Shown piece after piece: positions 3,995 through 55,784 of a DNA stretch of 64,000 bases; position 1 is the stretch's first letter, and the number at the start of each line of letters is the position of its first letter. This DNA is from Eledone cirrhosa. Taxonomy: Eukaryota. The stretch is from NCBI GenBank assembly GCA_964016885.1, contig OZ024745.1, forward strand, positions 22,134,001 to 22,198,000, given 5' to 3'. The notes beneath the pieces are model-generated. The model ran no database searches. It saw only the letters and a list, made by a program, of their open reading frames with translations, and had not been told where the DNA came from. A program made the position numbers and the translations under genes.

Positions 3995-4724
<730 letters not shown>

Positions 4725-5768
4725 TAAAATAACAGATTAAAGTTTAAGCAAAGAATCGCTGCTTTCACCCTTAACGGGATCTTCTGAAACTAACAAAGTC
4801 AATCTGTAAACGCAGAACTGGATATTTCAAAAAACGTTGCAACCGGAGGAAGACAGGAAGACGATACTTTGGTTCGTGTTAACGTTCGCTGGCAAAGAAC
4901 GGGAAAAAACGAATTATACGTCAACCAGTAATACACTGGGTAATTGCTGGCCTTGTGCCAAAAGTAGAAACAATTAATAGGAGCGGTGAAAAACAATTAC
5001 GCGCAAAGACAAAACCACGTTTATGGTATAAAAGAGGTAGTAGATTAATGTTCTCTTAGGTGGTGCATAGAGACGTTCTCTGGCAATGAACGAAAAAACG
5101 AAGATAATAAGTCATATGTGGTGCGTGGAGAACAATAACACGCAAAGACAAAACCACGTAAATGGTATAGCAGAAATCGTAGACTAAAATTCTAACTAGG
5201 AGTCCAAATGAATCTCCGCTACAGAGTTAAGAACAAAGTAAATAAATACAATACAGAAGTAATAAAACAAATAAATACATACATGCAAACAGATACGTAC
5301 ATACACAAGCATACGCAAAACCTTACCATGGGTATACAAAACCACGCGCATATAAATATGCTTGTGTGTGTATGCTTGTGTACAAATAAATAAATAATTA
5401 TATAAACGTATATAAGTAAATAAATACGTATATAACTAGCGCACACGCATACCTACATATAAATACACGAATGTTCGGAGACGTAAGTCAACTAAAACAA
5501 GAAGTACACATATACACACACCCACCATACGTACGAACCTGCACACTCACGCGGACGCAAAACTCCCGTATACACATAGCCAAACCCTAATTACCAGAAT
5601 ATGTAAAAATTATACGCTATAACAGTCAAATATACGTACGAGAAGGTATACATACCTTCACAAAACATACGGGTAATATATACTTACCTATGCAAATAAG
5701 TAAAGGAATAAACAAAACATATACTTAGCTCCCACATCAAGACGTAAAATATCCACGTATAGATCGTG

Positions 5769-6395
5769 CTATCCGTTAGGGTCTAACGTGGGGCTGTAAT
5801 ACAGGAAAGTTTTGTGCAATTTATGTTTACAAGCCGAAATTGCCTCAGATTTTTTGTTTAAGATGTGGTCTGTAGCGTAGAGTATTTCCAGGGCCTCAGC
5901 GGCGCAGAGGTCACATGGTCTTTTATTTCCGTTATACGATCTAGCCCTAGCTAGGATATCCCAGTGTAACTTATATTGGGTGTGGTTGTCTTTTAGACTC
6001 CAGATATAAGCTGAAAGTGACGTCATATTCCTTCTTAGAGGGTAACGAAAAGAATGGGTATGCATGTAAAGACGCTGCTTGAAACTATTGGCGGTTAACC
6101 CTATGTAGGCCCTACGGGACGTGGGTGTTACAACCTTACATTTGTAGACAATGTTACTAGAGAGGTATTTCCCGGATAGGGGGCAATCAGCCCGATTCCT
6201 ACAATTACAGTTAGTACTAACTACAGGGTTGCACGTGTTCCTACGGCTAGGTAGTTTAGCTAAATTTGAAGCTGTGATGTTATGTGCAAGGTTAGGAGTC
6301 GTAGAGTAAGAAATTTTAATAGTATTTCTATTAAAAATTTTACTATATTTATGTGTAGGGGGAAAATGCTTCGTAATAAGGGAAAGAAAGATCTT
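5769..6395 (-). pseudogene. PLE ORF C-terminal fragment (Cys-rich linker plus GIY-YIG endonuclease)
   Basis: Frame is open upstream of the listed ORF: KHFPPTHKYSKIFNRNTIKISYS..NCNCRNRADCPL..IVYKC..AYIGLT..FKQR..CDLCAAE..CKH. Confidence 0.9.
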
Positions 6396-6659
6396 ATCTT
6401 CGTTTTTTCGTTCATTGCCAGAGAACGTCTCTATGCACCACCTAAGAGAACATTAGTCTACGACCTCTTTTATACCATAAACGTGGTTTTGTCTTTGCGC
6501 GTAATTGTTTTTCACCGCTCCTATTAATGACGTATTATTCGTTTTTTCCCGTTCTTTGCCAGCGAACGTTACCACGAACCAAAGTATCGTCTTCCTGTCT
6601 TCCTCCGGTTGCAACGTTTTTTGAAATATCCAGTTCTGCGTTTACAGATTGACTTTGTT

Positions 6660-6710
6660 AGTTTCAGAAGATCCCGTTAAGGGTGAAAGCAGCGATTCTT
6701 TGCTTAAACT
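6660..6710 (+). ncRNA. Hammerhead-like motif with U4A core variant (inverted copy 4741-4791)
   Basis: agttt-CAGAAGA-tccc gttaa gggt-GAAA-gca..tgc-TT-aaact. Confidence 0.55.
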
Positions 6711-6808
6711 TTATTTTAATAAATATTTGCTCTACGGTTCTTATATATTTGATATATATTTTCCTTATCGAGCCCTCTTTGGATTTTAGTCTTCAATTTT
6801 ATTATTAT

Positions 6809-15400: not shown

Positions 15401-15404
15401 TAAA

Positions 15405-15790
15405 TGGAAAAGAATGAAACGAAATTTCATTTCTCACTCTTAGTATGGCTGATACTTAAATGTAAGTATGTATGTATACGTACATACATATATGTATACA
15501 GACGTACATATATATATATATGTACGTATGGGTTTACCGAATATTTTTTATAATGCTCGGTTTGTTTGTTTGTAAACAAACAGCCCGAATTACGCCGTAC
15601 AGTGTTTAGGCAACCACGCCACCTTTTTGTTCAACACTGACACAGGAACGATGTACTAGTTTCAAGCTTATTAGCTATCGTCAGCATCGTATACCTTCCT
15701 GCCAGAGGGCTGAACGTCTGAAAGTATATACTTTCCTTATGCATATTAACGGCTGAGCAGCCTAATTTGCATATCGAGTGAGTTAGTCAT
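15405..15790 (-). mobile_element. Partial copy of the 453-nt HHR monomer family (HHR 15648-15690)
   Basis: rc acgatg-CTGACGA-tagc taataa gctt-GAAA-ctag-TA-catcgt; homologous to 44503-45435. Confidence 0.85.
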
Positions 15791-20537: not shown

Positions 20538-20610
<73 letters not shown>

Positions 20611-20614
<4 letters not shown>

Positions 20615-21437
20615 AAGATAGACATAGAATATTCGAAAATATTCTGTATGTTTATAATAAACATTTTGAAGACCAAATCGCTATAGAATAGAATACGTCA
20701 CGTATTACAATTAGATTCTCGATAAAAGCAAGGGAAGTAACCTACGCGTTTCATTCTTATTAGAAATCTTCAGGATTACATATCCAGTGCTTTTATCGAG
20801 AATGACACAGCTAGAGACTTATAGAATACTTAGCTGTGTACAGGAACTGGTTTGAAAGAGCGGTTGCCGGACCGGCAGAAATTAGAAATTGGATTAAATG
20901 CTCGGAAATAGCGATATATATGTGAAGATAGACATAGAATATTCGAAAATATTCTGTATGTTTATAATAAACATTTTGAAGACCTAATCGCTATAGAATA
21001 GAATACGTCACGTATTACAATTAGATTCTCGATAAAAGCAAGGGAAGTAACCTACGCGTTTCATTCTTATTAGAAATCTTCAGGATTACATATCCAGTGC
21101 ATATGTAATCATATTTATTAAAGAGCATTTAATCCAATTTCTAATTTCTGCCGGTCCGGCAACCGCTCTTTCAAACCAGTTCCTGTACACAGCTAAGTAT
21201 TCTATAAGTCTCTAGCTGTGTCATTCTCGATAAAAGCACTGGATATGTAATCCTGAAGATTTCTAATAAGAATGAAACGCGTAGGTTACTTCCCTTGCTT
21301 TTATCGAGAATATAATTGTAATACGTGACGTATTCTATTCTATAGCGATTAGGTCTTCAAAATGTTTATTATAAACATACAGAATATTTTCGAATATTCT
21401 ATGTCTATCTTCACATATATATCGCTATTTCAGAGCA

Positions 21438-21443
<6 letters not shown>
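20611..21443. mobile_element. Retrozyme-like element: 310-nt non-coding monomer, about 1.6 copies (minus) joined head-to-head to about 1.0 permuted copy (plus)
   Basis: 20611 repeats at 20921; inverted arm 21123-21443 starts and ends with gagcatttaat; HHRs at 20737-20779, 21047-21089 (minus) and 21247-21289 (plus). Confidence 0.88.
21247..21289 (+). ncRNA. Minimal type I hammerhead ribozyme
   Basis: gtaatc-CTGAAGA-tttctaataagaat-GAAA-cgcg-TA-ggttac, enclosed by the 15-bp stem ttctcgataaaagca/tgcttttatcgagaa. Confidence 0.88.
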
Positions 21444-23210: not shown

Positions 23211-23487
23211 TGTATGTATGTATGTATGTATGCATGTATGTATGTATGTATGTATGTATGTATGTATGTATGTATGTATGTATGTATGTATGTGCGTATG
23301 CTTGAGTTGTTTATACCTACATAAAGTATATCTCTCTCTCTAAATATATATATAATAAATAATGTAATCTGAGTTTTCGAATATTAATAATAATATTCGG
23401 TTGCAATTTTGAAAACAGCCTCTTTTTTAAGCCATGTCAGTAGAATGAGCCCCTCATTCTTGCTCTTGTGTTGGCATGTAACTATAG

Positions 23488-23531
23488 CTGCAGATCCTAA
23501 TTTTCTGGGTGATTACCCGTCATCAGTGCAG
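23488..23531 (-). ncRNA. Hammerhead motif with imperfect helix III
   Basis: rc ctgca-CTGATGA-cgggt aatc accca-GAAA-attagga-TC-tgcag. Confidence 0.6.
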
Positions 23532-24130
23532 TTTACTGCTCACCTGCCAACTGTCAGAGCTACTGAAAATATATGATATTTTCTGAAATATACAGTGACT
23601 GATCGGCTTGATTTGCATATTAGCAGATTGGCCAGTCAGTTCCATGTATACGAGCGATTAATGGCCGGCTTTGCCATATTCATGTGTGCGTGTGTGTGTG
23701 TGGGGGGGGGGGTGTATGTGTGTGTGTATTTTCTATAACAACTTTCACTGCAAACCATTCCGTTCATCAGTTATCGACTGCAGGCCTCTACCATTTCCGT
23801 ACTTTCCCATGGCATCTCTCCCTCCAGCGGTGCCAAACAGGTTTGATGCCACCAAGAAATATCCGAGGTTTATCATTCAGTCTCTAGCACAATTTTCTTC
23901 GTTATCCCTGCTACTATCACCATCATCCAGATGTTTATATAACTATTGCTATCATTCAGGAATTATGGTATTTGCTCATTGTTAAGGATTTTCTAGAGAA
24001 CTCAATACCGAAGTAAAGTTTCAAAATTCATTTTATTAAGGCTAAATAGTGAATGTTGTTACTCTAGAGTTTCGCTTGCTTATCACAGGGTCATTAGACA
24101 ACGACAATACACATACATACTCCGCCACCC

Positions 24131-24187
<57 letters not shown>

Positions 24188-24193
<6 letters not shown>

Positions 24194-25125
24194 CAAATAA
24201 CGAAACGAAATTAAATTTCGTTTCGTTTGTAACTCACTTTCGTATGACTGACGCTTAAACAATTAAGTTAAAAGTGTACATCCACATATGTATACTGAAA
24301 TACTGGTATGCATATAAACACACACACGTATACATATGTACATGTACCGAGTTTTTCAATGGACACTTTACTGTGAGTGTCTAGCTAGTCTGTATGTAAC
24401 CAAACAGACAAACCGGTTTTTAGAGTCATACTGGTTTTCAAGGAAACACCTTTCCTCTATTCTCCAGAGAGCCAGACAGGAATATTGGACTAGTTTCGAT
24501 GTTATTACATCTCATCAGCAATATTTACCCATCCTCCGGCCTCTCTAGAGAATCGTAAAAGCACATATCGTTATATGCTTTTTCTATGAAAATTAGTAGT
24601 GGGCAGACTAATTTGCATAGAGCGTGAGTACGTACCGGTTCAGCGGAAACGATAAAAACAAATAACGAAACGAAATTAAATTTCGTTTCGTTTGTAACTC
24701 ACTTTTTGTATGACTGACGCTTATTTGTTTTTATCGTTTCCGCTGAACCGGTACGTACTCACGCTCTATGCAAATTAGTCTGCCCACTACTAATTTTCAT
24801 AGAAAAAGCATATAACGATATGTGCTTTTACGATTCTCTAGAGAGGCCGGAGGATGGGTAAATATTGCTGATGAGATGTAATAACATCGAAACTAGTCCA
24901 ATATTCCTGTCTGGCTCTCTGGAGAATAGAGGAAAGGTGTTTCCTTGAAAACCAGTATGACTCTAAAAACCGGTTTGTCTGTTTGGTTACATACAGACTA
25001 GCTAGACACTCACAGTAAAGTGTCCAGTGAAAAACTCGGTACATGTACATATGTATACGTGTGTGTATTTATATGCATACTAGTATTTCAGTATACATAT
25101 GTGGATGTACACTTTTAACTTAATT

Positions 25126-25130
<5 letters not shown>
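24188..25130. mobile_element. Retrozyme-like element: 465-nt hairpin-rich monomer, about 1.15 copies (minus) plus about 0.9 inverted permuted copy (plus)
   Basis: 24189-24257 repeats at 24654-24723; inversion junction about 24724; HHRs 24481-24525 (minus) and 24861-24905 (plus). Confidence 0.88.
24861..24905 (+). ncRNA. Canonical minimal type I hammerhead ribozyme (GUC site)
   Basis: aatattg-CTGATGA-gatgt aata acatc-GAAA-ctag-TC-caatatt; all helices perfect. Confidence 0.92.
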
Positions 25131-34479: not shown

Positions 34480-37275
34480 ATTTCTGATTATCTATCATGC
34501 TTTACCTATTCCATTTTTATGTTTCTTGGTTTTCTTTCTATATGTTGTTCTTTTGCTCATGTAGCCACTTTCGTAATCTTTCTTCCATTCTATCATTCTT
34601 ATCTTCTTTCTTTTTTATATTATTTTTATCCCTCGCTATTTCCTACTTTCTTTCATTCAATTTCTCTCCCTTTCTTATCCATCCAACATCATATTTCTAA
34701 CTATATTAGAGTATCAAATATTTTAACCCTTATCCTCTTCTAGAGGTATAGTTTATACTGAAAATCGTTTCAAACAAAAACAAAAGCACACAACAACAAA
34801 CCGGTTAAAACCAAAGAAATTTCGGCCAAATTAAGCATGAACATTTTCGCAAAATGGCAAAGCGGTTCAAACCAGTTCAAACTTGATCGATCTGGCTTAC
34901 AACATTTCAGTCCAGTTGAAGTCAGATTAAAACAATTCAGAATGTTTCAAATGCATTAAAATCGAAGTAAATCTCCATAAATCAAGCTCAAATTAGCTCG
35001 AAATCCCGCAACGCAAAGTCCTATCAACTGCTCAATATGATGTTCAGCCTGATCATATTTGTTTAAAACAGTTCTACAACTTCCCTGTTTCTCAAACCAG
35101 AAACAGTTTCTACACAACCAAGAATAAATAAGGGAAAGAAACGTAAAAATATTTAAACTGGCACAAATTGAATCAATCCAATGCAATCCAGGGGCTTCTC
35201 ACCCCTGTTGATGGAACCCCTCCTTTTTTGACCTCCAGCGCTTTCTCTTTGGTTTGAGACTTGTCAGGGATGTAGCCTTGTCCACCACCCTTGGCCAATT
35301 GCGGGCTTGTGAGGCTATTTAACCCATAGTTGGGGTGGACTTTTTTAATCAAGTGAATTGTAACTTCTAACTCCGATTTCCCTCGCATTGGTAGTCTTCT
35401 AGAAGACCATGGTCACCAATAATTTCTTTTTAAAGCCATAAAATAAATATATTACCTTTTAAAAGAAAGTTAACGTTAGCAAATTGGAGGAAATTAACAG
35501 AAATTTCATTAAAATTGCAAATATAATTAATAGCTCAATCCAGAAAAAGTAAACTGCAATAAGCTAGGAGGTAACCAGAAGGTCCTGTGCAATTTTAAAA
35601 CAAGGCAAACTAATGTAAATCAGATCAAATTTGTTCCAATATTTTTATACAAGTTCAAACACGCCTAGACCAGTTTAAACCAGTTCAGATTAGGTTCCGT
35701 CAGACCAAATCGTCTATAAAGGGATCCAAGTGAACTAGAGTGGATATAAAATATAAAAACTGTCATTAAACACAAAAGAAATTGCATATAGTATGGCCTA
35801 TGCTTGAGAAAACCTGATAAAAAACAGAAAATTTGATTAAACCAAGAATATAAGAGTTGAAGACTGTCAATGTTTGACCAAATCTCGATTCACGTGGATT
35901 CGGATTCACTGTTTAATTAGGGACAAAATAAAACAAATTGCTTCAAAAGAGAATCAAGCCTTCGTAAATCGTTACCAATTTCATCCTGTAGCGGTTTGAT
36001 CCAAAATTGATCAAAATTGATGCAAATTAGCATTAAACAGATGAAATGGCTTAAATCAAGAATAATCATGTTCAGGCAAAAATATATAAAAACAAAGAGG
36101 TTAGAATCTGTTAAATCTGTCCTAAGTATTTTTAACCTTCTTTCGAAATAGTCCATAAATATCGAAATGGGTTACAAAGGATTAAAAAAATAGGCTCATT
36201 TACATGGAACAGAAAATAGCGTGTAAATATACCCCCCCCCCCCCCCCAACCCCCCATACACAAATATTCAATTTAGACAGTTTTTATTCAATCAGATCAA
36301 TATTATCCAATGAAGACCAAAGTAACCCAATCGACAAGATATCTGAAACCGAATGGCAGGAAAAGGTAAATATACTGACGAATTTCAAACAACTTCAAAG
36401 ATGGAATATTCTGCTATTTGCATTGTAAGTATGGAGTGTTTTGTGATTGTAGCATGGCCACGTCGAGAAATTCATTTGTGTGACATATTGTGACTATAGG
36501 AAATGAAGTTAAGAAAAAACAAACAATCATACACAACTCTCCTGCACACGACAATTAAACAGAGAGGAAATCCAACGGCGAAACATTTACGTGGTCATTG
36601 CGTCTGCAAAAAATAACAGCCAAATTCCATTAAAATTCGACCAAACTGTCTTAACAGAAAGCACATTTATTGATATTGTACAAAGTACATTCTCCTTGGC
36701 AAAAATGCAAAAAATTCGAAGTAGTCAGGTAGAATGGTTTTGATCATATCTTCGCTTCTTTGGGGCCGACTTTGGGTTAAACAACAATAACAACACTAAA
36801 TAAATCTATCAAATTAAATCACACCTTTATACAGAAACATTAAAGTGATTATTGCAAGCTATATGAAATATTCCTTACACAATTCATTGACCAGTCGATA
36901 AAAGTTGAGAAAGTAAACCTCTCACGTCTTTGTCACATAATAAACTTTTCACGTGCAGCTCTGATTCACTTCTAAAACCATTTTCATTCCACTTTGTACT
37001 TACCTTAATGAATATTGGTTTCACTGCTTGTCTCACCTGTGATACATACTGACATGTTTGCCGATTTACCAAATCTGTTATTTTTCTTACACACTTGTCT
37101 GCTGCGTATACACTAGATTGTTTAAAATATTTAACCCTGACCGCTATCGTTATCTTTCTATATACAAACGAAACAGTTATATATGAAATAAAAAATGCCT
37201 ATACTCTACCAATGTATTACAGAATCTTTTTTAATTGTAGTTACCTTCAGACACACACATATATATATATATATT

Positions 37276-38119
37276 GCACTGGAGAAACACCAGGACTCTG
37301 GCTTTACTGTAGCACCGGCTCAGAGCAGGAGAGTGGGGGCGAAAAAGGTATCGGATGCTGAATTTGCCGACGACATAGTTTTGGTGACAAATACAGTGAA
37401 GGAGGCAGAGGATTTGATGCGGGAGGTTGAGACTGTGTCGATGAGTGTGGGGCTGAGAATGAATGAGACTAAAACAAAATATCTGGTAGAGAATGTTGAG
37501 AAGCCAGAGGGGATCACTAATGTAGGCGGGAAGCCGCTGGAATTGGTTGAGGACTTCCTGTATTTGGGAGCAAAGATTGGGAATACGGAGGATGATGTGG
37601 TTGAGAGGAAGAGCAAGGCCTGGGCGGCGTGCCACAGCTTGAGATCGGTGTGGAAGTCGGACCTTCGTAGAGACCTGAAAATCCGCCTCTTCATTGCTGT
37701 AGTGGAGTCTGTGCTGCTGTATGGGTCTGAGACTTGGACACTGACCAAGAAACTCACTCAGATGGTGGATAGGTGCTACACGAGAATGCTGAGGATGGCT
37801 CTGAACATTAATCAGTATACACTGAGGATGAAAAACTCAGAGCTGTATGGGAGCATCCCAAAAGTCAGCTCAAAAGTGACACAGAGGAGACTGAGGTTGG
37901 CTGGACATGCTCACCGACATCCAGAGTTGACATTGCACTCAGTGCTCCTTTGGGAGCCCCTACATGGACACACTAGAAGAGGAAGACCAAGGTTAACATA
38001 TGTTGATGCGCTAAGGACAGACACTGGTCTGTTGGAGATGCAGGATATGGCAGCGATAATGAGGGACAGAGACCGCTGGAGAGAACTCGTCCATGGATCT
38101 CGGGAATTTTACCCGCCTT

Positions 38120-38121
<2 letters not shown>
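37276..38121 (+). mobile_element. 5'-truncated RTE-clade LINE: RT C-terminal part with intact frame, ending in (AT)n
   Basis: EFADDIVL, VGLRMNETKTK, FLYLG, LLYGSETWTL, RRLRLAGH, RRGRPRLTY, RDRDRWR. Confidence 0.92.
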
Positions 38122-39944: not shown

Positions 39945-42900
39945 TGTAGGAGGTGCGTTTTATTGTAGTACAATAAAGCAATTCAGATATCGGATAAGAA
40001 GCACTCTACAGTTTGTGGGACTGGAGTATGCATAATATAAGATCAAAAGATGGTTAAAGGATTTCCATATATTTTATTATGCGCATTTCAAAAACAAACA
40101 TCATCAAGCAATAATATTTGTGTTTTCATCAGATAAAACAGGAGAACATGATATGAAGGCTAAAAATACACTTGTTGATAGTGCAGTTTTAAATCAACAT
40201 ATGAAAAGTGGTTTTAGATTGATGTGTGATATTGGGAAAAATATTTTATTTAGGGAGGGGGGGGGGGGAGGATGAAAAAAGGGGGGGAGGAGATGAGAGT
40301 GAAGGTGGAGAGGGAGAGATGGGTGATAGAGAGAAAGAGATAGTTTTTATAACTGAGAAAAAGATATATTGTTTTAATATAGAGAGGTTGGGAACAGTTG
40401 GGAGATAATGTATAAATTAAAGGAATTTGAAAATTAACGAAGGGAAATTATGTATGAAGATGGAGAGAAAAAAAATAATAATTGTGGGTGAATATTCTAA
40501 CGTCAAAAGAAGAAATGTATGTATTGTGGCAATTTCAAAATTAGCGAAGAGAAAAATTGTTAAGGTTTGTGTGTAGAAGGATTTGAGAAAAATAATGTGA
40601 AGTTAAAGTTTGTATATTGAATTGATATGTATTAATAATGAGTTCGTTGATGGGGAGAAAAAAATAATAATAAATTAAGGATGAAATTGAGATTAAAAAG
40701 ATTTATGATAGAGAGAAAAAATAATAATGATTGCGGATGAATATTCAAAATGTCAAAAACAAATGTTATTATTTTACGAGAAGATAGAATGAGGGTAATG
40801 AGTAAACGAGTATTATAGAGTGTATAATGCCCTTTAAAGTAAGGTAGATGGGTATATTTTAAAGAGGTGTATGTATATGTGCCTTTGAGAAAAGATTCTA
40901 AATTGATAAAGAATTGAATATTAACTGTAAAAGAGGTGTATGTATATGTGCCTTTGAGAAAAGATTCTAAATTGATAAAGAATTGAATATTAACTGTATA
41001 CTTTGTGAAAAGTTCTATGGAATTTATGCAGGCAGATAGAAAACAAATCTGAGCGTCTATTTATTATAGATTCTAGGTTAGAGATAATGGTAAATTTTTC
41101 ATTTAGGCAGAGATTACAGATTTTAGATAGAGAGCTGTTCAAGTATGAGGATGCAGAAGAAATCTTTTTCCAAAAGATGTTATATTTAATGTTTTTGTCT
41201 TTTAAGGACCATATGAGTTCTGAGAGAGCAGTGTTAGTTCTTTTAAGTTTGTATTTGAAAGATGAATGATGATTATAGAGACGAGCTTTAAAAGAGGTGG
41301 AAGTGGAGCCAAAATAGGTGAAGGAATTGGTGCTAGTTATAATTTTACATTCATAAATTAAGTTTTTATCGAGGCAATGGTTGTTGAGAGGACATTTATT
41401 TTTAATGCGGCAGTTGCAATTAGAGAGATTATTAATGAGTGATCTAGTGTTATCTATAGAAGGAATTGGATTGGAGAAGTTGTTTGCGATAGGAATAATA
41501 GGAATAATAGTTTCTTGATTTAGAGTTGGATTATGAACATTTAGCGAAGTTGTGTTTGACGTTGTATTTGGGTTTACAGAAGTTAGCCTAGGGTTTACAA
41601 TGACGTCGGGAGTACTATTACTGTTATTATGAAATTCAATATTGGAAGGAAGAGATTTAGTATTTAATATTTTGTTGTTGTGTTTAGAGATGATGTTGGA
41701 AATATTGGAGGATGTAGAATACGAAAATTTGATGGTGTGTTTGTTAAATATTTTACTATAGATATGTGAGGGAGGGAAGCATTTATTTAAGGCACTAAAA
41801 AATAATTTAGGAATATTGTTATTAATAGAGATGGAGAAAGGAGCATTATACCAGATTATGTTTTTGTATCTAGGTCTTTTATTAAAATTATTGGAATGGT
41901 CATGATTAATTATTCTACTGTAAGTTTTCCTAGAATTTGTTTCTTTATTATATTTGATTTTATCTGGATAGCCGGCTTTAGAAAGTGCGTTATTATAGTA
42001 ATTGGCGTTAGCATCAAAGATGTTTTTATTAGAAGATATGTTAGATATTCTATTTCCAATATTATTAACTATAGCATTCTTGATATTGGTAGGATGGTTA
42101 GATTTAAAGTTAACATAATTAAGATTCTCATTGTTTTTATGGTAAGGGTAATATAGGCTAATTTCTTGGATGTATCTCTTAATCTTGACACTGGCCTATA
42201 TTACCCTTACCATAAAAACAATGAGAATCTTAATTATGTTAACTTTAAATCTAACCATCCTACCAATATCAAGAATGCTATAGTTAATAATATTGGAAAT
42301 AGAATATCTAACATATCTTCTAATAAAAACATCTTTGATGCTAACGCCAATTACTATAATAACGTACTTTCTAAAGCCGGCTATCCAGATAAAATCAAAT
42401 ATAATAAAGAAACAAATTCTAGGAAAACTTACAGTAGAATAATTAATCATGACCATTCCAATAATTTTAATAAAAGACCTAGATACAAAAACATAATCTG
42501 GTATAATGCTCCTTTCTCCATCTCTATTAATAACAATATTCCTAAATTATTTTTTAGTGCCTTAAATAAATGCTTCCCTCCCTCACATATCTATAGTAAA
42601 ATATTTAACAAACACACCATCAAATTTTCGTATTCTACATCCTCCAATATTTCCAACATCATCTCTAAACACAACAACAAAATATTAAATACTAAATCTC
42701 TTCCTTCCAATATTGAATTTCATAATAACAGTAATAGTACTCCCGACGTCATTGTAAACCCTAGGCTAACTTCTGTAAACCCAAATACAACGTCAAACAC
42801 AACTTCGCTAAATGTTCATAATCCAACTCTAAATCAAGAAACTATTATTCCTATTATTCCTATCGCAAACAACTTCTCCAATCCAATTCCTTCTATAGAT

Positions 42901-44429
42901 AACACTAGATCACTCATTAATAATCTCTCTAATTGCAACTGCCGCATTAAAAATAAATGTCCTCTCAACAACCATTGCCTCGATAAAAACTTAATTTATG
43001 AATGTAAAATTATAACTAGCACCAATTCCTTCACCTATTTTGGCTCCACTTCCACCTCTTTTAAAGCTCGTCTCTATAATCATCATTCATCTTTCAAATA
43101 CAAACTTAAAAGAACTAACACTGCTCTCTCAGAACTCATATGGTCCTTAAAAGACAAAAACATTAAATATAACATCTTTTGGAAAAAGATTTCTTCTGCA
43201 TCCTCATACTTGAACAGCTCTCTATCTAAAATCTGTAATCTCTGCCTAAATGAAAAATTTACCATTATCTCTAACCTAGAATCTATAATAAATAGACGCT
43301 CAGATTTGTTTTCTATCTGCCTGCATAAATTCCATAGAACTTTTCACAAAGTATACAGTTAATATTCAATTCTTTATCAATTTAGAATCTTTTCTCAAAG
43401 GCACATATACATACACCTCTTTAAAATATACCCATCTACCTTACTTTAAAGGGCATTATACACTCTATAATACTCGTTTACTCATTACACTCATTCTATC
43501 TTCTCGTAAAATAATAACATTTGTTTTTGACATTTTGAATATTCATCCGCAATCATTATTATTTTTTCTCATAAATCTTTTTAATATCAATTTCATCCTT
43601 AATTTATTATTATTTTTTTCTCCCCATCAACGAACTCATTATTAATACATATCAATTCAATATACAAACTTTAACTTCACATTATTTTTCTCAAATCCTT
43701 CTACACACAAACCTTAACAATTTTTCTCTTCGCTAATTTTGAAATTGCCACAATACATACATTTCTTCTTTTGACGTTAGAATATTCACCCACAATTATT
43801 ATTTTTTTTCTCTCCATCTTCATACATAATTTCCCTTCGTTAATTTTCAAATTCCTTTAATTGATACATTATCTTCCAACGGTTCCCAACCTCTCTATAT
43901 TAAAACAATATATCTTTTTCTCAGTTATAAAAACTATCTCTTTCTCTCTATCACCCATCTCTCCCTCTCCACCTTCACTCTCATCTCCTCCCCCCTTTTT
44001 TTCATCCTCCCCCCCCTCCCTAAATAAAATATTTTTTCCTCGCACATATCCTCCCTTCGTTAATTTTCAAAATTTTTAATTTATACAGTATCTTCCAACG
44101 GTTTTCAACCCCTCTATGTAAAAAATATATCTCCTCTCAGTTATAAAAACTATCTCTTTCTCTCTATCACCCATCTCTCCCTCTCATCTCCTTCCCTTTT
44201 CATCCCCCCCCCTCTCTAAATAAAATATTTTTCCCAATATCACACATCAATCTAAAACCACTTTTCATATGTTGATTTAAAACTGCACTATCAACAAGTG
44301 TTTTTTTAGCCTTCATATCATGTTCTCCTGTTTTATCTGATGAAAACACAAATATTATTGCTTGATGATGTTTGTTTTTGAAATGCGCATAATAAAATAT
44401 ATGGAACTCCTTTAACCATCTTTTGATCT

Positions 44430-44438
<9 letters not shown>
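39945..44438. mobile_element. 4.5-kb palindromic PLE: two 5'-truncated copies joined head-to-head at about 42159-42193
   Basis: Arms near-identical in inverse orientation; HHRs at 40070-40140 (minus) and 44329-44399 (plus); (TA)n flanks. Confidence 0.95.
42166..43362 (+). CDS. 5'-truncated PLE ORF: end of RT/thumb, Asn-rich linker, Cys motif and GIY-YIG endonuclease (mirror copy about 40990-42158 on minus)
   Basis: FLDVSLNL, YVNFKSNHP, IIWYNAPFS, CNCRIKNKCPL, LIYEC..YFGST, FKAR, CNLCLNEK, CLH; no native start. Confidence 0.88.
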   Translation: MDVSLNLDTGLYYPYHKNNENLNYVNFKSNHPTNIKNAIVNNIGNRISNISSNKNIFDANANYYNNVLSKAGYPDKIKYNKETNSRKTYSRIINHDHSNNFNKRPRYKNIIWYNAPFSISINNNIPKLFFSALNKCFPPSHIYSKIFNKHTIKFSYSTSSNISNIISKHNNKILNTKSLPSNIEFHNNSNSTPDVIVNPRLTSVNPNTTSNTTSLNVHNPTLNQETIIPIIPIANNFSNPIPSIDNTRSLINNLSNCNCRIKNKCPLNNHCLDKNLIYECKIITSTNSFTYFGSTSTSFKARLYNHHSSFKYKLKRTNTALSELIWSLKDKNIKYNIFWKKISSASSYLNSSLSKICNLCLNEKFTIISNLESIINRRSDLFSICLHKFHRTFHKVYS

Positions 44439-44502
<64 letters not shown>

Positions 44503-44506
<4 letters not shown>

Positions 44507-45435
44507 TTGTAATATAATGAAACGGAGTTTCATTTCTCACTCTTAGTACGGCACTTACTTAAATGTAAGTATGTATGTATACGTACATACATATATGTAT
44601 ACAGACGTACAGTAGCATGCATATATATATATATATACATACAGGTACACATATATATATGTACGTATCAGTTTAGCGAACGTTTATTATAACGCCCGCT
44701 TTGTCCGTTTGTAAACAAGCGAACAGCCTGATTTATGCCATACGGTGTTAAGGCAACCACGTCAGCTTTTTGTTCAACACTGACACAGGAACGATGTACT
44801 AGTTTCAAGCTTGTTAGCTATCATCAGCACCGTATACCCTTCTGCCAGATAGTTGAACGTTCGAAAGTATATACTTTCCTTATGAAAATTAACGGCTGAG
44901 CAGCCTAACAGGACAAAGCGGGCGTTATAATAAACGTTCGCTAAACTGATACGTACATATATATATGTGTACCTGTATGTATATATATATATATATATGC
45001 ATGCTACTGTACGTCTGTATACATATATGTATTTACGTATACATACATACTTACATTTAAGTAAGTGCCGAAATAAGAATGAGAAATGAAATTTCGTTTC
45101 ATTATATTACAACTTATCGTTTTCGGTACGCCTGGCCGACTGAACTCACTCGATATGCAAATTAGGCTGCTCAGCCGTTAATTTTCATAAGGAAAGTATA
45201 TACTTTCGAACGTTCAACTATCTGGCAGAAGGGTATACGGTGCTGATGATAGCTAACAAGCTTGAAACTAGTACATCGTTCCTGTGTCAGTGTTGAACAA
45301 AAAGGTGACGTGGTTGCCTTAACACCGTATGGCATAAATCAGGCTGTTCGCTTGTTTACAAACGGACAAAGCGGGCGTTATAATAAATGTTCGCTAAACT
45401 GATACGTACATATATATATGTGTACCTGTATGTAT
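44503..45435. mobile_element. Retrozyme-like element: 453-nt monomer, about 0.9 copy (minus) plus about 1.15 permuted copies (plus)
   Basis: ggacaaagcgggcg at 44911 and 45364; HHRs 44791-44833 (minus) and 45237-45279 (plus). Confidence 0.88.
45237..45279 (+). ncRNA. Minimal type I hammerhead ribozyme
   Basis: acggtg-CTGATGA-tagc taacaa gctt-GAAA-ctag-TA-catcgt. Confidence 0.88.
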
Positions 45436-45444
45436 GTATATATA

Positions 45445-48212
45445 TATATATATATAATAAATGGGTACAAAATATACGCAAGTATACATACATAAATGCG
45501 GCTGAGGGACAACAGAAAATATCTGGAGTTAAAAACACAAGTGACATGTGATGTCTGGTAGTGAAAGAAAAGGGGAAAGTAAAATAAATGTAAATAATGT
45601 ATAATTGTTAAGATATAAAGTTAATGAATCAAATAGCGGGGGGGGGGGGGGGTCACTACTGGATGTAAAGTAAAAATAAAGATAAGTAAAGCTGAATGAG
45701 AAGTCTATAAAAAAGGTAAGTTAAGGAAAGTGAAGAACAAGAGTTTATGGAGGATAAGTGTCTGAAAGTGAGTTAAGTTTATATGAGCTGGAAAGCAAAT
45801 ATGATTTCATGAGTGGGCAACTGATGAACATTTCTGTTTTTGCATTTAGGCAGGTTTTTGGTGATTTAAGGTTCTGTAAAAACCAATATTTTTCACTTAT
45901 GCAGAGTGCGCATCTTCTTGTTCCTCTTGCGTATTCTTTAGAATGGTTCAAAATTGACCAATCTAATTTATATTGGATACCTTGGTCCTTCAAATCCCAA
46001 ATTCTGCTAGCCAGAGCTGTTGTAAATCTTTTTTCAGGATGTCAGAAAGATGCGACATGTAAGTAATAATGCATTTTGAATTTGTCTTGTGTCATACCCA
46101 CATATCGTTCGCTGGTGGCTGGTAGGTTGTTGCTTTGTTGCTGGTGGTTGTCACTTTGGCCTCATATACAATGGCTTTGGTGTTGCATTTACTTTGTAAT
46201 GAGCATTCACTTTTGACTCTACAGGAGCAATTTTGATATTCTCTGGGTGTTTTCTTATTAAGGATAGATTTAATAGAGGGACCGCAGGAGTAGTTGATTT
46301 TGACACAATTTCTATTGAAGATCTTATAGTATCTATGTGTTCTAGGGAAATGTTTATCTAAGAGCTCTGGGAATGTTTTGCCTACATTAGTTTTAACTGC
46401 TAAAGAGTAGGGGGTGTGAATCAGATTATTTTTCTTTTCCTATTATTATGTTTAAAGGAGTTAGTATTGTTGGACATGTACTTAATCGGTTCACTAAATC
46501 CACTATTTTGAAGGGCTTTATTATAGTAGGTGGATGCCTTATTGAAAATAGCTTCTGAGGAAGAGAGGGTGGAGATCCTACGGCTAATATTAGGGATGAG
46601 ATTTTTAAATAATATAGGAGGATGGCAAGAGCCTTTATTTATGTATTTTAAATTTTCATTAGGTTTATGGTACGGTTTATAAGAAGCAGTAGACAGATCT
46701 AGGTTTACATCTAGAAAATTAACATTAGAAAGGTTTCTGGCAATTGTAATTTTAAGATTAAAACTAGCGAAGGTTTTTATTAAGTCTTTCCTGAATCTGT
46801 CTATGTTATGGCCTATCGTAGTATGGGAAAGTATTAGACCATCGTCACGATAAAGCCCAATGGTATGGTTATGGAATTTCTCTTTAAGTGTGTAAAGGAG
46901 GAATAGGCCGACTAAATCGCACACGTCAGCACTGTCAAAAGAACCCATTGAGACATCGAAGGGGTTCTCTGGGTTAGATTTTATTTTACCCAAGTATCAT
47001 TATTAGTAAACAGTAAAGTATTTCTAGCATGCAAAATGACATTCTCTTCAATATCAGAAATATTAATAAACTTTTTAGCAAAATTTAATGCTTTTGTTAA
47101 AAGAAGGAGAGTAATAGACGGGTAGAAGTCTACAATGTCAAATTGGGTGAATCTAGAACTATTTTTATCTTTAATATTTTTAAACCAATGTACTACAGAA
47201 GAGCTATTTATCCATTGGAGTAATTCTGACTTACTTCTAATATGTTTGTTTATGTTATTTAATATTTTTTTGCTAGCAAGGCCGATTTCAGTCTTAGCAG
47301 GGTTGATTAATCTACAACTGGGACGATTATTAAAATCGATCTTTAAGAGTGATATAGGCATTACGTTTTGCAAATGTTTCTGTTCTATTGTCTATTTTAA
47401 AAAAAACTAGCTAATTCTTTGGCGTCCTTATTAATAGTATTATAGGGATTTATGTTAGCTCTTTGGTATTTAGAGGTGATGCTATCTGTATAGAGTTGGT
47501 CATGTAAGTTATTATTAACTTCGTATTATTAACTTCAGAGAAAATGAACTTATTTTTAGAAGATTTGAATTTTGAAATATCGTTAGAGGGTTTAGATTGA
47601 AAAGAGTTAAAGTACTTACGGAATTTGATTTGGTTAATTAAATTAACTAAGTCTAGTTCAAAAGCGGTCATGTCTTTTACCCTTTGTGGGTATTTATGAG
47701 ACTTGATGTCAAAGTATTCTGTAGAGTCCGTGATAAAGTGTCCGTCGAAAATCAAAGCTTTCCATCTCATCCTTTTTACAACTTTTTCTACTTTGTCGAT
47801 CAACATTTTAGTGTAGGAAGTGTTAGAAGGTGTTGGTATATTCTTGATGGAGTAATCCAAAAAATAACAATCCATGTTAGGTATTGGTTAAAATTCCTTT
47901 TAACTGAAGAGTGCTCGACTTTAAGGGCCTGGAAGGTGCCAGAATCATATAAATGTAGAATATGCTACAATCATTCCGTTGGGAGCTGTATAAGTATTGA
48001 AGTTTTCGTTGAAAATTGAAAAGGTCAGAGGAATGAAGAGTGCTATATGTAAGTTCCAGAACAGAGCTAAATATTTAATGTATAATAAACAATACAATAT
48101 AATTACCTCATTACCAAAGGTTTCCCGAATAATACGAATACAAGAAACGTCCGCATTCGTCCGTCAGACAAGGCAATTTAAAACATAGTGAAATATTTCA
48201 AAAATCATCTCA

Positions 48213-48282: not shown

Positions 48283-50791
48283 AATATATTAACAAATATA
48301 AACTATATTTATAAAACCATATTTATTTCATTATACATATTTCAAGGGCCACCAAGGCAAACTATGGTGCGCTTTCATCAGATAAAATATAATATACGTT
48401 AGTTTTATAAATAAATATTGACATACCCTGAAAAAATGAAACCATTCTGGTTGGAATCTCCTGGATAGTGAAGTTATTAGATTTATTGTTGGTTTATTAT
48501 GCAAATTAATGACGGGAAGGTTTAAACAACAGTATATTTAAATTAAGCCGTTAGAATAAGGAAGAAAGAAAGAGAAAAAAACGAAAGAAAGAGAATAAAC
48601 CTGAGTATATTTAAGTGAGAGAGAATATTAGTTATAAGGATAGTAATAGCGTAATTTTGAGAGAAGAGGCGAAGAAATGAATATAGCGTGGATGAATACC
48701 GTAGCGTGGATAAATAATAATATCCGGATTCATTATAATGATAAGCTGAAGAATTTTATCTAATGTTTAATTAATAAATTTGATTAAATGTTTAATTAAT
48801 AATTTATCAATTCAATCCGTAGTTTAAATGTGTATGTTAGATTATTAAAAGTGAGACCTATATATTATTAAAGAATATATATTATTAAAATATATATTAT
48901 TAGAAAATATGTTATTATTACAAAACCATATATAATTTTATTAATTATTAATTAATTATTTAAAAGTTTAAAATATCCGAATATTTCTAAGCCTATGGAA
49001 ATTCCGAGAGTTTACAGAAGAATGATCCCTTATTTGTAATAGCAGTAGAGCGTAAAGGAAATTGCTAGTGATTTATTAATAATTTAGATAGCTCTAAGGA
49101 TTAAATACTATGAAGTTAAGATCTTAAAAAATTAAATTTTCCATCTTAATAATGTAATTAGAGTATGAATCTTATGTTATTTTATAGCAAGTTATAATTT
49201 CATAAATCTACCTGTTATACAGTTATGACTGTTAAAACATAAATTTCTTTGCTATAACGTCTTAACATTTAACATTTTTTCATAGGAATATATCTAAAGC
49301 ATAAACCATAAAAAACTCTTTCATAAGAGTATATCTATAGAATATATTTAAAGTATAAATTTTATATATATATATAAACATTTTTATATATATATATATA
49401 TTAAGCATTTGAAAAAGATAGAAATATAGAAATATTTAAAAAAATGAATTGTAATTTTTAAAAATATAAGAATATAGAAAATAAAATACACAGTATAAAA
49501 TATGAATTATGAATTATAATTTCCTTATACCCATCAGAGGAATTTTCAAAAAAATCCTTCTTCAAATCTTTCAGTACGTTTATCAAGAAAAGTTTTTCAA
49601 GAAAAAAATGTTTTCCAAGAAAACATTGTTCTTTTAAGAGAGTTATAAGCAGCCATATGAAGGAATCTAATGAATTATCGATAGGTTTAATAAAGAAGAG
49701 TTATGTATTACATTTTATATATATATATTTAAACGTTGAGTTCAATCTATGTTTGCAAGAACTGAAAAGATTATTCCTTAAATTAACAGAATTCTTACTT
49801 TTTAATATAAAGAATATTTCCTCTATACGAAGAGCACAATTTTCAGAAGAAGCATTGAATGGAGGAGCTTTGGAGATAATATTCCAAAGTAAAGAATAGA
49901 TAGTGTTCTTTGATTTTAGGTCCCATAGTAAATTAGATAGAGAAGTTGAAGATTTTTTATTTATATTCGTAAAAGAGCATTTATGGTTATTAAAACGGGA
50001 CTTAAAATCTGTGGAGGTAGAGCCTACGTAATTAAATGAATTTAAATTAGTTTTTACATTACAATTATATACTATATTTTTAACTAAACAATTGTTATTT
50101 AACGGACAGTTAGATTTATTTCGACAGTTACATTTATCAAAATTTAAGTTTCTAGGAGCCGTATTATTCAGTTGGATATTGCTGGGGTCATTAATGGTAT
50201 TCTGGTTAGGTTTTAAGTTTCTATTATTAATTCTATTAATATTCTGCGCTAAATTACTGGTGGTTGAATACGTTAATTTTATAGTATGTCTATTAAATAT
50301 TGAGTAATACCTATGTGTTCTAGGGAAGCATTTATCTAGAGCTTTAAAGAATAATTTAGCAATAGGAGTTTTAATACTTAATGAGAAAGGAGGAGCGAAC
50401 CATAATATATTCCTAGTTCTATTTCTTTTTTTGTTTTTCGAATTATTGTAAGGTTTTCTATTATAGTTGTTAAAATTATGGTTATTTGTCATATCATTAT
50501 TATCAATGTATTTAATTTTATTACTATATCCAGCTCTACCTAACGCTTCGTTATAATATTGCGCTTTATCTTCAAAAATATTCTTATTAGCTGAAATTCT
50601 AGAAATACGTTGCTGCACAGAGTTTACTATAGTGTTTTTAAGGGATCTGGGGGTGATTGGAATTAAAATTAACGTAGTTTAAGTTCTCGTTTATTTTGTG
50701 AAATGGATAATACAGACCATAGTTTGCCTTGGTGGCCCTTGAAATATGTATAATGAAATAAATATGGTTTTATAAATATAGTTTCCATTTG

Positions 50792-52480: not shown

Positions 52481-55722
<3,242 letters not shown>

Positions 55723-55784
55723 GTATATATATATATATATATATATGTAAATATATATATACATATTTATATTTATATATATTC

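Follow-up and report, generated by a model that had tools for sequence, protein, structure and literature searches.

The window, meaning the whole stretch of 64,000 nt that was analysed, begins 22.1 Mb into its contig, in a genome of 3.0 Gb that is rich in simple repeats. At positions 44503-45456, between (TA)n tracts, two arms of a hammerhead repeat lie back to back: a minus-strand arm of 406 nt (44908 to 44503), an inverted copy with 96-99% identity, and a plus-strand arm of approximately 545 nt. Both carry a type I hammerhead with a helix I of 6 bp, a helix II of 4-5 bp and a palindromic ACTAGT helix III of 2 bp. The first-pass annotation had described a 453-nt period at this locus, and the period is real, in that GGACAAAGCGGG occurs at 44911 and again at 45364 on the plus arm, 453 nt apart; however, the arms are opposed rather than in tandem, and direct repetition is limited to 82-88 nt within the plus arm. 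The features of the locus and of related copies elsewhere in the window are as follows, where family A is the 453-nt type of this locus and family B the 465-nt type.

44430..44502, no strand: (TA)n tract, left target site
44503..44908, minus strand: inverted arm, 0.9 unit, 5'-truncated within the 12-mer, with a long ('tail') 3' end into (TA)n
44791..44833, minus strand: the inverted arm's type I hammerhead, predicted to be cut between 44797 and 44796
44909..45456, plus strand: direct arm, 1.2 units, ending in the unit's own (TA)n
44911..45363, plus strand: one 453-nt unit; its fold has -140 kcal/mol and z -7.9, against z -3.3 for the opposite strand
45049..45066, plus strand: hairpin with the short 3' end of family copies in its loop (about 45059)
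45060..45115, plus strand: 'tail' of about 58 nt separating the two fixed 3' ends; the long end, at 45115, precedes T4 at 45120-45123
45154..45165, plus strand: 12-mer TATGCAAATTAG, including the octamer; 5' arm of a hairpin with 45179-45189
45196..45203, plus strand: TATA-like box GTATATAC, 43 nt past the start of the 12-mer (47-49 in host U6-type promoters)
45231..45283, plus strand: type I hammerhead, predicted cut after 45273
Parts of this hammerhead, plus strand: helix I 45237-45242/45274-45279; CTGATGA 45243-45249; helix II 45250-45263 (first pair U-U); ACTAGT helix III
15402..15788, minus strand: older subfamily copy A2, one arm, 12-mer 15762-15773, tail-site end
23290..23680, minus strand: family C copy (about 400 nt), octamer 23611-23618 with a U1/U2-like TCAGT after it, helix III damaged
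24190..25130, both arms: 465-nt family B, two opposed arms, one with a tail end and one with a short end

The direct arm stops about 60 nt before the usual short site and is adjoined by a Penelope-like element; we infer that the missing 60 nt or so were lost. The unit has a typical length of 453-517 nt, a GC content of 37% and no complex frame of at least 100 aa on the ribozyme strand, and a single stop-to-stop frame of 110 codons lies on its minus strand. No reverse transcriptase (RT) or GIY-YIG frame is present in the unit, nor is one joined to it in the loci read. The hammerheads of 44503-45435 were not among the 150 of 188 Rfam matches listed, and for the 465-nt family Rfam gave HH9 at 32.7 bits, under the cut-off of 52.

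Judged by its sequence, the unit qualifies as a non-LTR retrozyme. The metazoan elements of this kind described in the available text of Cervera and de la Pena 2020 (PMC7229834) and of Li, Clavereau and Pollet 2026 (bioRxiv 10.64898/2026.07.22.740005) are, as here, non-coding tandem units of 150-450 nt with one type I hammerhead each, a GC content below 45% and a self-paired fold. Their RNAs were shown as circles, whereas a circular form of the repeat studied here is a prediction.

Family A units measure 418-545 nt, mostly 459-517 nt (45 natural monomers), because an internal (TA)n tract varies in length, also within arrays; 453 nt is therefore the length of this copy only. The diverged third copy noticed earlier, with a G-U to A-U change in helix I, was found again at 15402-15788 (minus strand) and is 86% identical, with ACGATG/CATCGT against ACGGTG/CATCGT. 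Family B has its 12-mers in the window at 24767-24778 (plus strand) and 24608-24619 (minus strand), and the octamer reported at 23611 near another hammerhead does lie there (23611-23618, minus strand), approximately 90 nt ahead of the hammerhead of family C. Family C (L051-L070) has one to three tandem octamer-like blocks per unit and, in some copies, T-run expansions at the tail site. Two further hammerhead repeats were observed: family D, a two-armed repeat of 310 nt without the octamer (window 20604-21443; also L244 and L284), and family E, a 338-nt unit with an ATGCAT helix III found in a 600-kb sample (L275:9350-9875 and L232). Five odd octamer-plus-hammerhead matches (L101-L105) yielded no new repeat family.

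A pattern combining the octamer and the hammerhead core gave 32,968 matches, counting every unit of arrays and some chance matches, against one for a control pattern. Copies are dispersed over many chromosomes, and arrays run from two up to about 30 units; in 60 evenly spaced stretches of 10 kb, A-type copies (at least 75% identity) occur in six, B in three, C in three and D in two. Contigs of sequencing run X1, of unknown kind, hold the family at great depth and X6 gave two low-depth contigs, while runs X4 and X5 match at the TA-rich end only; none of these runs enters the argument on expression or range.

The first-pass annotation had taken the 453-nt and 465-nt units to be structurally homologous, a claim to be judged by alignment and covariation of both monomers. 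Aligned over their full length from cut to cut, the A and B monomers are identical in 300 of 499 columns (60%) and score 259.5 against 26 ± 14 for shuffled sequences (z 16.7); the parts after the ribozyme (z 4.3), around the tail (z 5.4) and around the octamer (z 17.4) also score beyond shuffles. The order recorded earlier for both families, ttatcgttt, actcac, tatgcaaattag, a loop, taattttcata and then a hammerhead with an ACTAGT helix III, is indeed common to them, and the large indels sit downstream of the TATA-like box. When folded as circles, both show the same order of hairpins in a conserved multibranch fold, with z scores for the ribozyme versus the opposite strand of -7.8 versus -2.5 (A) and -9.9 versus -7.7 (B). 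When 11 copies from six subfamilies are compared, both partners have changed in 26 of the 91 consensus pairs, which amounts to few independent events because the copies are essentially two lineages. Mapping one fold onto the other pairwise keeps 72% of the pairs against 31-51% for slid controls, a weaker result than the multi-sequence fold, with 26 of the 64 changed pairs kept and 38 broken. These results confirm that the 453-nt and 465-nt families are homologous and co-linear, both in sequence and in covarying structure.

In the ribozyme alone, the catalytic core is invariant and 6 of the 16 helix I and II pairs change on both sides. The earlier statement that helices I and II differ between the families and still pair holds, as 92.9% of their cells are paired against 34-52% in slid controls, with one exception: in all 9 A-type rows among the 15, helix II lacks its first pair (U-U in 8). 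The conserved pair at this position is G-C in the available text of PMC4209133, according to which animal type I ribozymes with such a hammerhead layout act as dimers. The U-U next to the core may weaken the family A ribozyme.

Similarity to family C is weak (A versus C, z 3.8 global and 2.2 local; B versus C, 2.2 and -1.0). Families A, B, C and E are probably related, and the analysis supports a diversified clade of non-autonomous retroelements made up of these four. The clade is old, as had been suggested; the subfamily at this locus, however, is young, its best family A copies being 1.6% off the majority base, mostly through G>A and C>T changes. Scars of RNA editing were not seen in young family A copies (A>G 14 and T>C 24 of 341 substitutions).

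Whether the octamer is a promoter element or only structural had been left as an alternative, and it bears on how the unit is transcribed. We compared the host genes for U1, U2, U6, U6atac, RNase P and MRP (L161-L226). The element TATG(C/G)(A/T)AAT(T/G)AG lies at -77 to -79 of three U6 loci, the best U6atac and RNase MRP, all of which have a TATA box at -30; the retrozyme 12-mer is an exact match to one host U6 promoter and near-identical to four more. It was found in none of 11 U1, U2 and RNase P regions, which instead have TCAGT or TCAAT at -55 to -58. The RNase P promoter groups with those of Pol II-type genes, yet its gene ends in a T-run. Among 27 U6 and 8 U6atac matches, most of the dispersed ones (14 U6; 7 of 8 U6atac) lack the element at this position, and we read these as putative retrocopies.

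A matrix built from four host promoters placed the four A/B copies at the top of about 128,000 window positions (19 bits; next 12), compared with leave-one-out scores of 11-23 for the host promoters, and MRP, fetched only after this matrix had been built, scored 19.1 bits. With a five-promoter matrix, A reached 20.2 and B 16.0, against 17.1-20.6 for the five host promoters from which it was made. In the 600-kb sample, six of nine matrix matches are retrozyme copies and three lie elsewhere, B copies falling just below the threshold; the octamer word is present in five of six ACTAGT-type copies and in no other hammerhead type. In family E the word is retained in the TGAG form seen in the host, and a TATA box is present at the same offset. 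Its sequence there is TATGCAAATGAG, with TATA at offset 44 and T6 past its long end.

The 12-mer is also one arm of a hairpin in A, B and E, a hairpin that the host promoters do not fold. None of its nine pairs changes on both sides, unlike most other helices. Because the 12-mer matches the host U6/U6atac/MRP proximal element and is the sole hairpin arm without compensatory change, we conclude that the octamer is more than structure, and the 12-mer is likely a working promoter element.

The strongest alternative accepts a retrozyme mobilised by Penelope-like elements, as set out below, and sees in the octamer an ancestral feature of the RNA only, a hairpin arm or protein-binding site, the RNA coming from host read-through. 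The hairpin conserved in A, B and E would fit this, and the TATA-like box is misplaced by 4-5 nt: its offset is 42-44 nt in A, B and E and about 44-46 nt, weakly, in C, against a tight 47-49 nt in the five host promoters, and spacing matters in snRNA promoters (PMC1761439, available text). A host distal element, TTACCTCCCTT, observed near -257 to -288, is absent from A, B and C; the same is true of U6atac and MRP. Being probably related, A, B, C and E also do not count as independent samples. Against a role in the RNA only stand the 12-nt exact identity with one host U6 promoter and near identity with four, its absence from the 11 Pol II-type regions, a TATA-like box at a fixed offset after the word with the large indels confined to the sequence downstream, a 12-mer helix without covariation where other helices covary, and a 600-kb sample in which other hammerhead types never carry the word and five of six ACTAGT-type copies do. 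We therefore regard this alternative as unlikely.

Returning to the 12-mer as a promoter element, the choice of polymerase is close, and we lean only slightly to Pol III over Pol II. The word is that of the U6, U6atac and MRP genes; Pol II is possible because the TATA offset fits the host TCAGT-to-TATA distance. In favour of Pol III, runs of at least four T are absent from the predicted transcripts of A, C and E, with one in B and two in the wordless family D, and a T-run (T4-T6) comes after the tail site in A, B and E as well as in some copies of C. Counting against an snRNA-type promoter, A, B and E score poorly on a U1/U2 matrix (-3.0, -23.8 and -11.1), the TCAGT element being weak in A and absent in B and E. 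Family C, which has TCAGT about 26 nt before a TATA-like box, scores 16.5 bits on the U1/U2 matrix, the top of 127,930 positions. Family D has a weak CCAGT/TATA match of 3.1 bits; it also carries TTACTTCCCTT, which is identical to the L177 host U6 distal element and lies about 255 nt ahead of where the next unit is predicted to start. This may be due to chance, because the motif overlaps helix I and occurs in seven other sampled stretches.

The ends of the insertions bear on how the unit is copied. In family A, 65 of 70 3' ends fall at two fixed sites, 34 at the short site in the hairpin loop and 31 at the tail site about 58 nt further on; in family B the figures are 59 of 62 (28 short, 31 tail), with the sites about 68 nt apart. 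These counts are approximate because some loci overlap and many were picked for holding the full query. The arms are permuted, as the first-pass annotation stated, with 3' ends that are fixed and not random. Among loci with arms on both strands, one short arm is combined with one tail arm at 15 of the 19 A loci and 18 of the 24 B loci; the others, 44503-45456 included, are truncated, complex or interrupted by the locus edge. The 5' ends, by contrast, are scattered, and only 5 of 69 in A and 5 of 60 in B lie within 20 nt of the cut site; neither the cut site nor the predicted start shows any clustering among these 69 A and 60 B ends, and for this reason we infer that the template is a circle or a multimer. 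A peak of 5' ends at positions 120-140 of the unit was put down to the TA hairpin, through either mapping or fold-back. The insertion targets are (TA)n.

An inverted arm, two fixed 3' ends and a (TA)n target make up the footprint of Penelope-like elements, which explains the arm layout; it was missed by the first-pass annotation and places the element in a known kind. In the available text of Craig et al. 2021 (PMC8557442), both Penelope-like elements and their non-autonomous Chlamys derivatives such as MRC1 have partial tandems, an inverted 5'-truncated copy, an optional tail and a bias towards (TA)n targets. Their tail is 30-40 nt long, against 58-68 nt in the retrozyme, which has no ORF; tail length equals the distance between two internal RT starts in the part of Frangieh et al. 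2024 (PMC11167929) that was available. There are no LTR ends on the unit, and its ends are of the Penelope type. Very probably, then, this is a retrozyme mobilised by Penelope-like elements.

At least three types of Penelope-like elements are abundant in the genome, one with open frames over 1200 aa. The window itself holds several with an RT followed by a C-terminal GIY-YIG (40027-44442, 45455-48019, 48290-50678, 53500-55766 and 4720-6713), some with inverted arms and hammerhead types of their own. By motif we take these to be Hydra-like, and the clade names used here, Neptune-like included, are likewise read from motifs; a 'Naiad' label was dropped on account of the C-terminal endonuclease, and Pfam returned nothing for three of the window frames. 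A perfect inverted repeat of 1236 nt lies at 40930-43422, and a fragment of a LINE-type reverse transcriptase at 37192-38121 (plus strand; RVT_1, E 2e-5). A young Neptune-like family (L111-L135; 33,867 first-look candidates) has open frames over 1200 aa, a 55-nt tail and, in the copies read, a hammerhead core without a clear helix I partner. The 3' regions of the Neptune-like family, of the second type (L136-L160) and of five window elements show tails or (TA)n ends of other sequence, without the octamer. The unit has no sequence link to any autonomous family compared: it matched none of seven 3' regions of Penelope-like elements, the highest z in 35 comparisons being 3.4, and no partner was found among them.

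The tail, the inverted arm and the (TA)n targets are also features of autonomous elements, and Li et al. (bioRxiv 10.64898/2026.07.22.740005), in the text available, link retrozymes to pseudo-LTRs (pLTRs) and find pLTR homology in Xenopus. The unit could accordingly be the pLTR of an autonomous Penelope-like element, and its copies the 5'-truncated insertions of that element. This is very unlikely, as the units stand head to tail in arrays of up to about 30, the unit and the Penelope-like frame are separated by (TA)n or opposed in the loci read closely (L012, L048 and L059), and the seven pLTR regions gave no match such as that of Xenopus, although a rare parent is possible given that the best 40 candidates per DNA search were taken.

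Homogeneous family B arrays of about 30 and 14 units were observed at C1:5738331-5751969 and C1:14044540-14050763. A-B junctions without (TA)n occur in L030 near 1940 and in L284 near 4756, and such direct junctions could be template switches or deletions. Rare variants common to all units of a locus are confined to a few loci (L090 and L110; single variants in L011, L024, L025 and L078), and sharing of this kind does not prove a single circular template. Long homogeneous arrays, an internal (TA)n of variable length within them, substitutions that are mainly G>A and C>T, and a U-U pair that may weaken the family A ribozyme could suggest a repeat of satellite type that spreads through DNA recombination and slippage of microsatellites, with hammerhead and fold as relics, but dispersal over many chromosomes, two exact 3' ends with scattered 5' ends, an invariant catalytic core, covarying helices and a fold asymmetry that favours the ribozyme strand make this highly improbable.

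Taking these observations together, our favoured reading, which we hold on balance and from the DNA sequence, is that of a protein-free non-LTR retrozyme with Penelope-type ends and an snRNA-type internal promoter, which would be cut, circularised and copied in trans into (TA)n. Each unit would contain the promoter, and transcription would start near 45227, a position given by the promoter spacing, some 15-27 nt ahead of the hammerhead core. Transcription would continue across the T-run at the tail site and give multimers, which paired hammerheads would cut (after 45273) into units carrying the promoter at their 3' end, and the cut units would then be circularised. The promoter would thus lie outside the primary transcript and inside the ribozyme-cut circle. 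A Penelope-like RT supplied in trans would start at two internal sites, one per nicked strand, and by running past the cut site, on a circle or a multimer, would give new copies that regain the promoter ahead of the ribozyme. As part of this scheme, a circular intermediate seems reasonably likely. More tentatively, the clade may have captured an upstream U6/MRP-type Pol III promoter of the host and kept it through RNA-based copying, its sister families sampling other parts of the host snRNA promoter kit, the TCAGT element in C and the distal element in D; we put this at somewhat less than even.

The promoter of newt satellite 2 holds an octamer and a proximal element. This hammerhead repeat (Coats, Zhang and Epstein 1994), as cited in PMC2220036 and PMC6765202, has its own snRNA-type promoter and, as here, a short helix III needing dimers; its promoter is of the Pol II type (PMC6765202), whereas the word found here matches the Pol III-type U6, U6atac and MRP genes of the host. 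The TATA spacing of the retrozyme is nearer to the host U1/U2 layout. In the Schistosoma hammerhead SINE-like repeats, according to the same two sources (PMC6765202, PMC2220036) as available, a Pol III promoter stands ahead of the hammerhead, so that cutting leaves it at the unit's 3' end and makes tandem copies necessary, as here. Single Schistosoma copies are said there to lose the promoter, whereas the copies studied here usually extend beyond the cut site and regain it, and the promoter here, unlike theirs, resembles upstream U6-type elements. Self-promoted hammerhead repeats have precedents in newts (an snRNA promoter, Pol II) and in Schistosoma (Pol III).

Within animal retrozymes, the available text of PMC7229834 and of Li et al. 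makes no mention of a pair of fixed 3' ends, of insertions with two arms or of a promoter inside the unit, and Li et al. report cleavage for one of nine Xenopus dimers. In a search of openly accessible papers and preprints, we found no paper on cephalopod retrozymes or on an octamer or U6-type promoter in a retrozyme. The kind of element, a non-LTR retrozyme, is already known, and the likely snRNA-type internal promoter is its variant feature.

What transcribes animal retrozymes and what mobilises them are open questions in the literature cited. Metazoan non-LTR retrozymes coexist with Penelope-like elements, which have been proposed as their helpers (PMC7229834; Li et al., available text), and the two-start-site footprint, seen in most of the ends scored, gives direct genomic support for such a helper. 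The likely U6 and U1/U2 promoter elements of the host are now defined, which is useful for the expression of small RNAs and guide RNAs. If the proposed scheme is true, it would represent a route by which an element retains its upstream promoter where ordinary retrocopies lose theirs.
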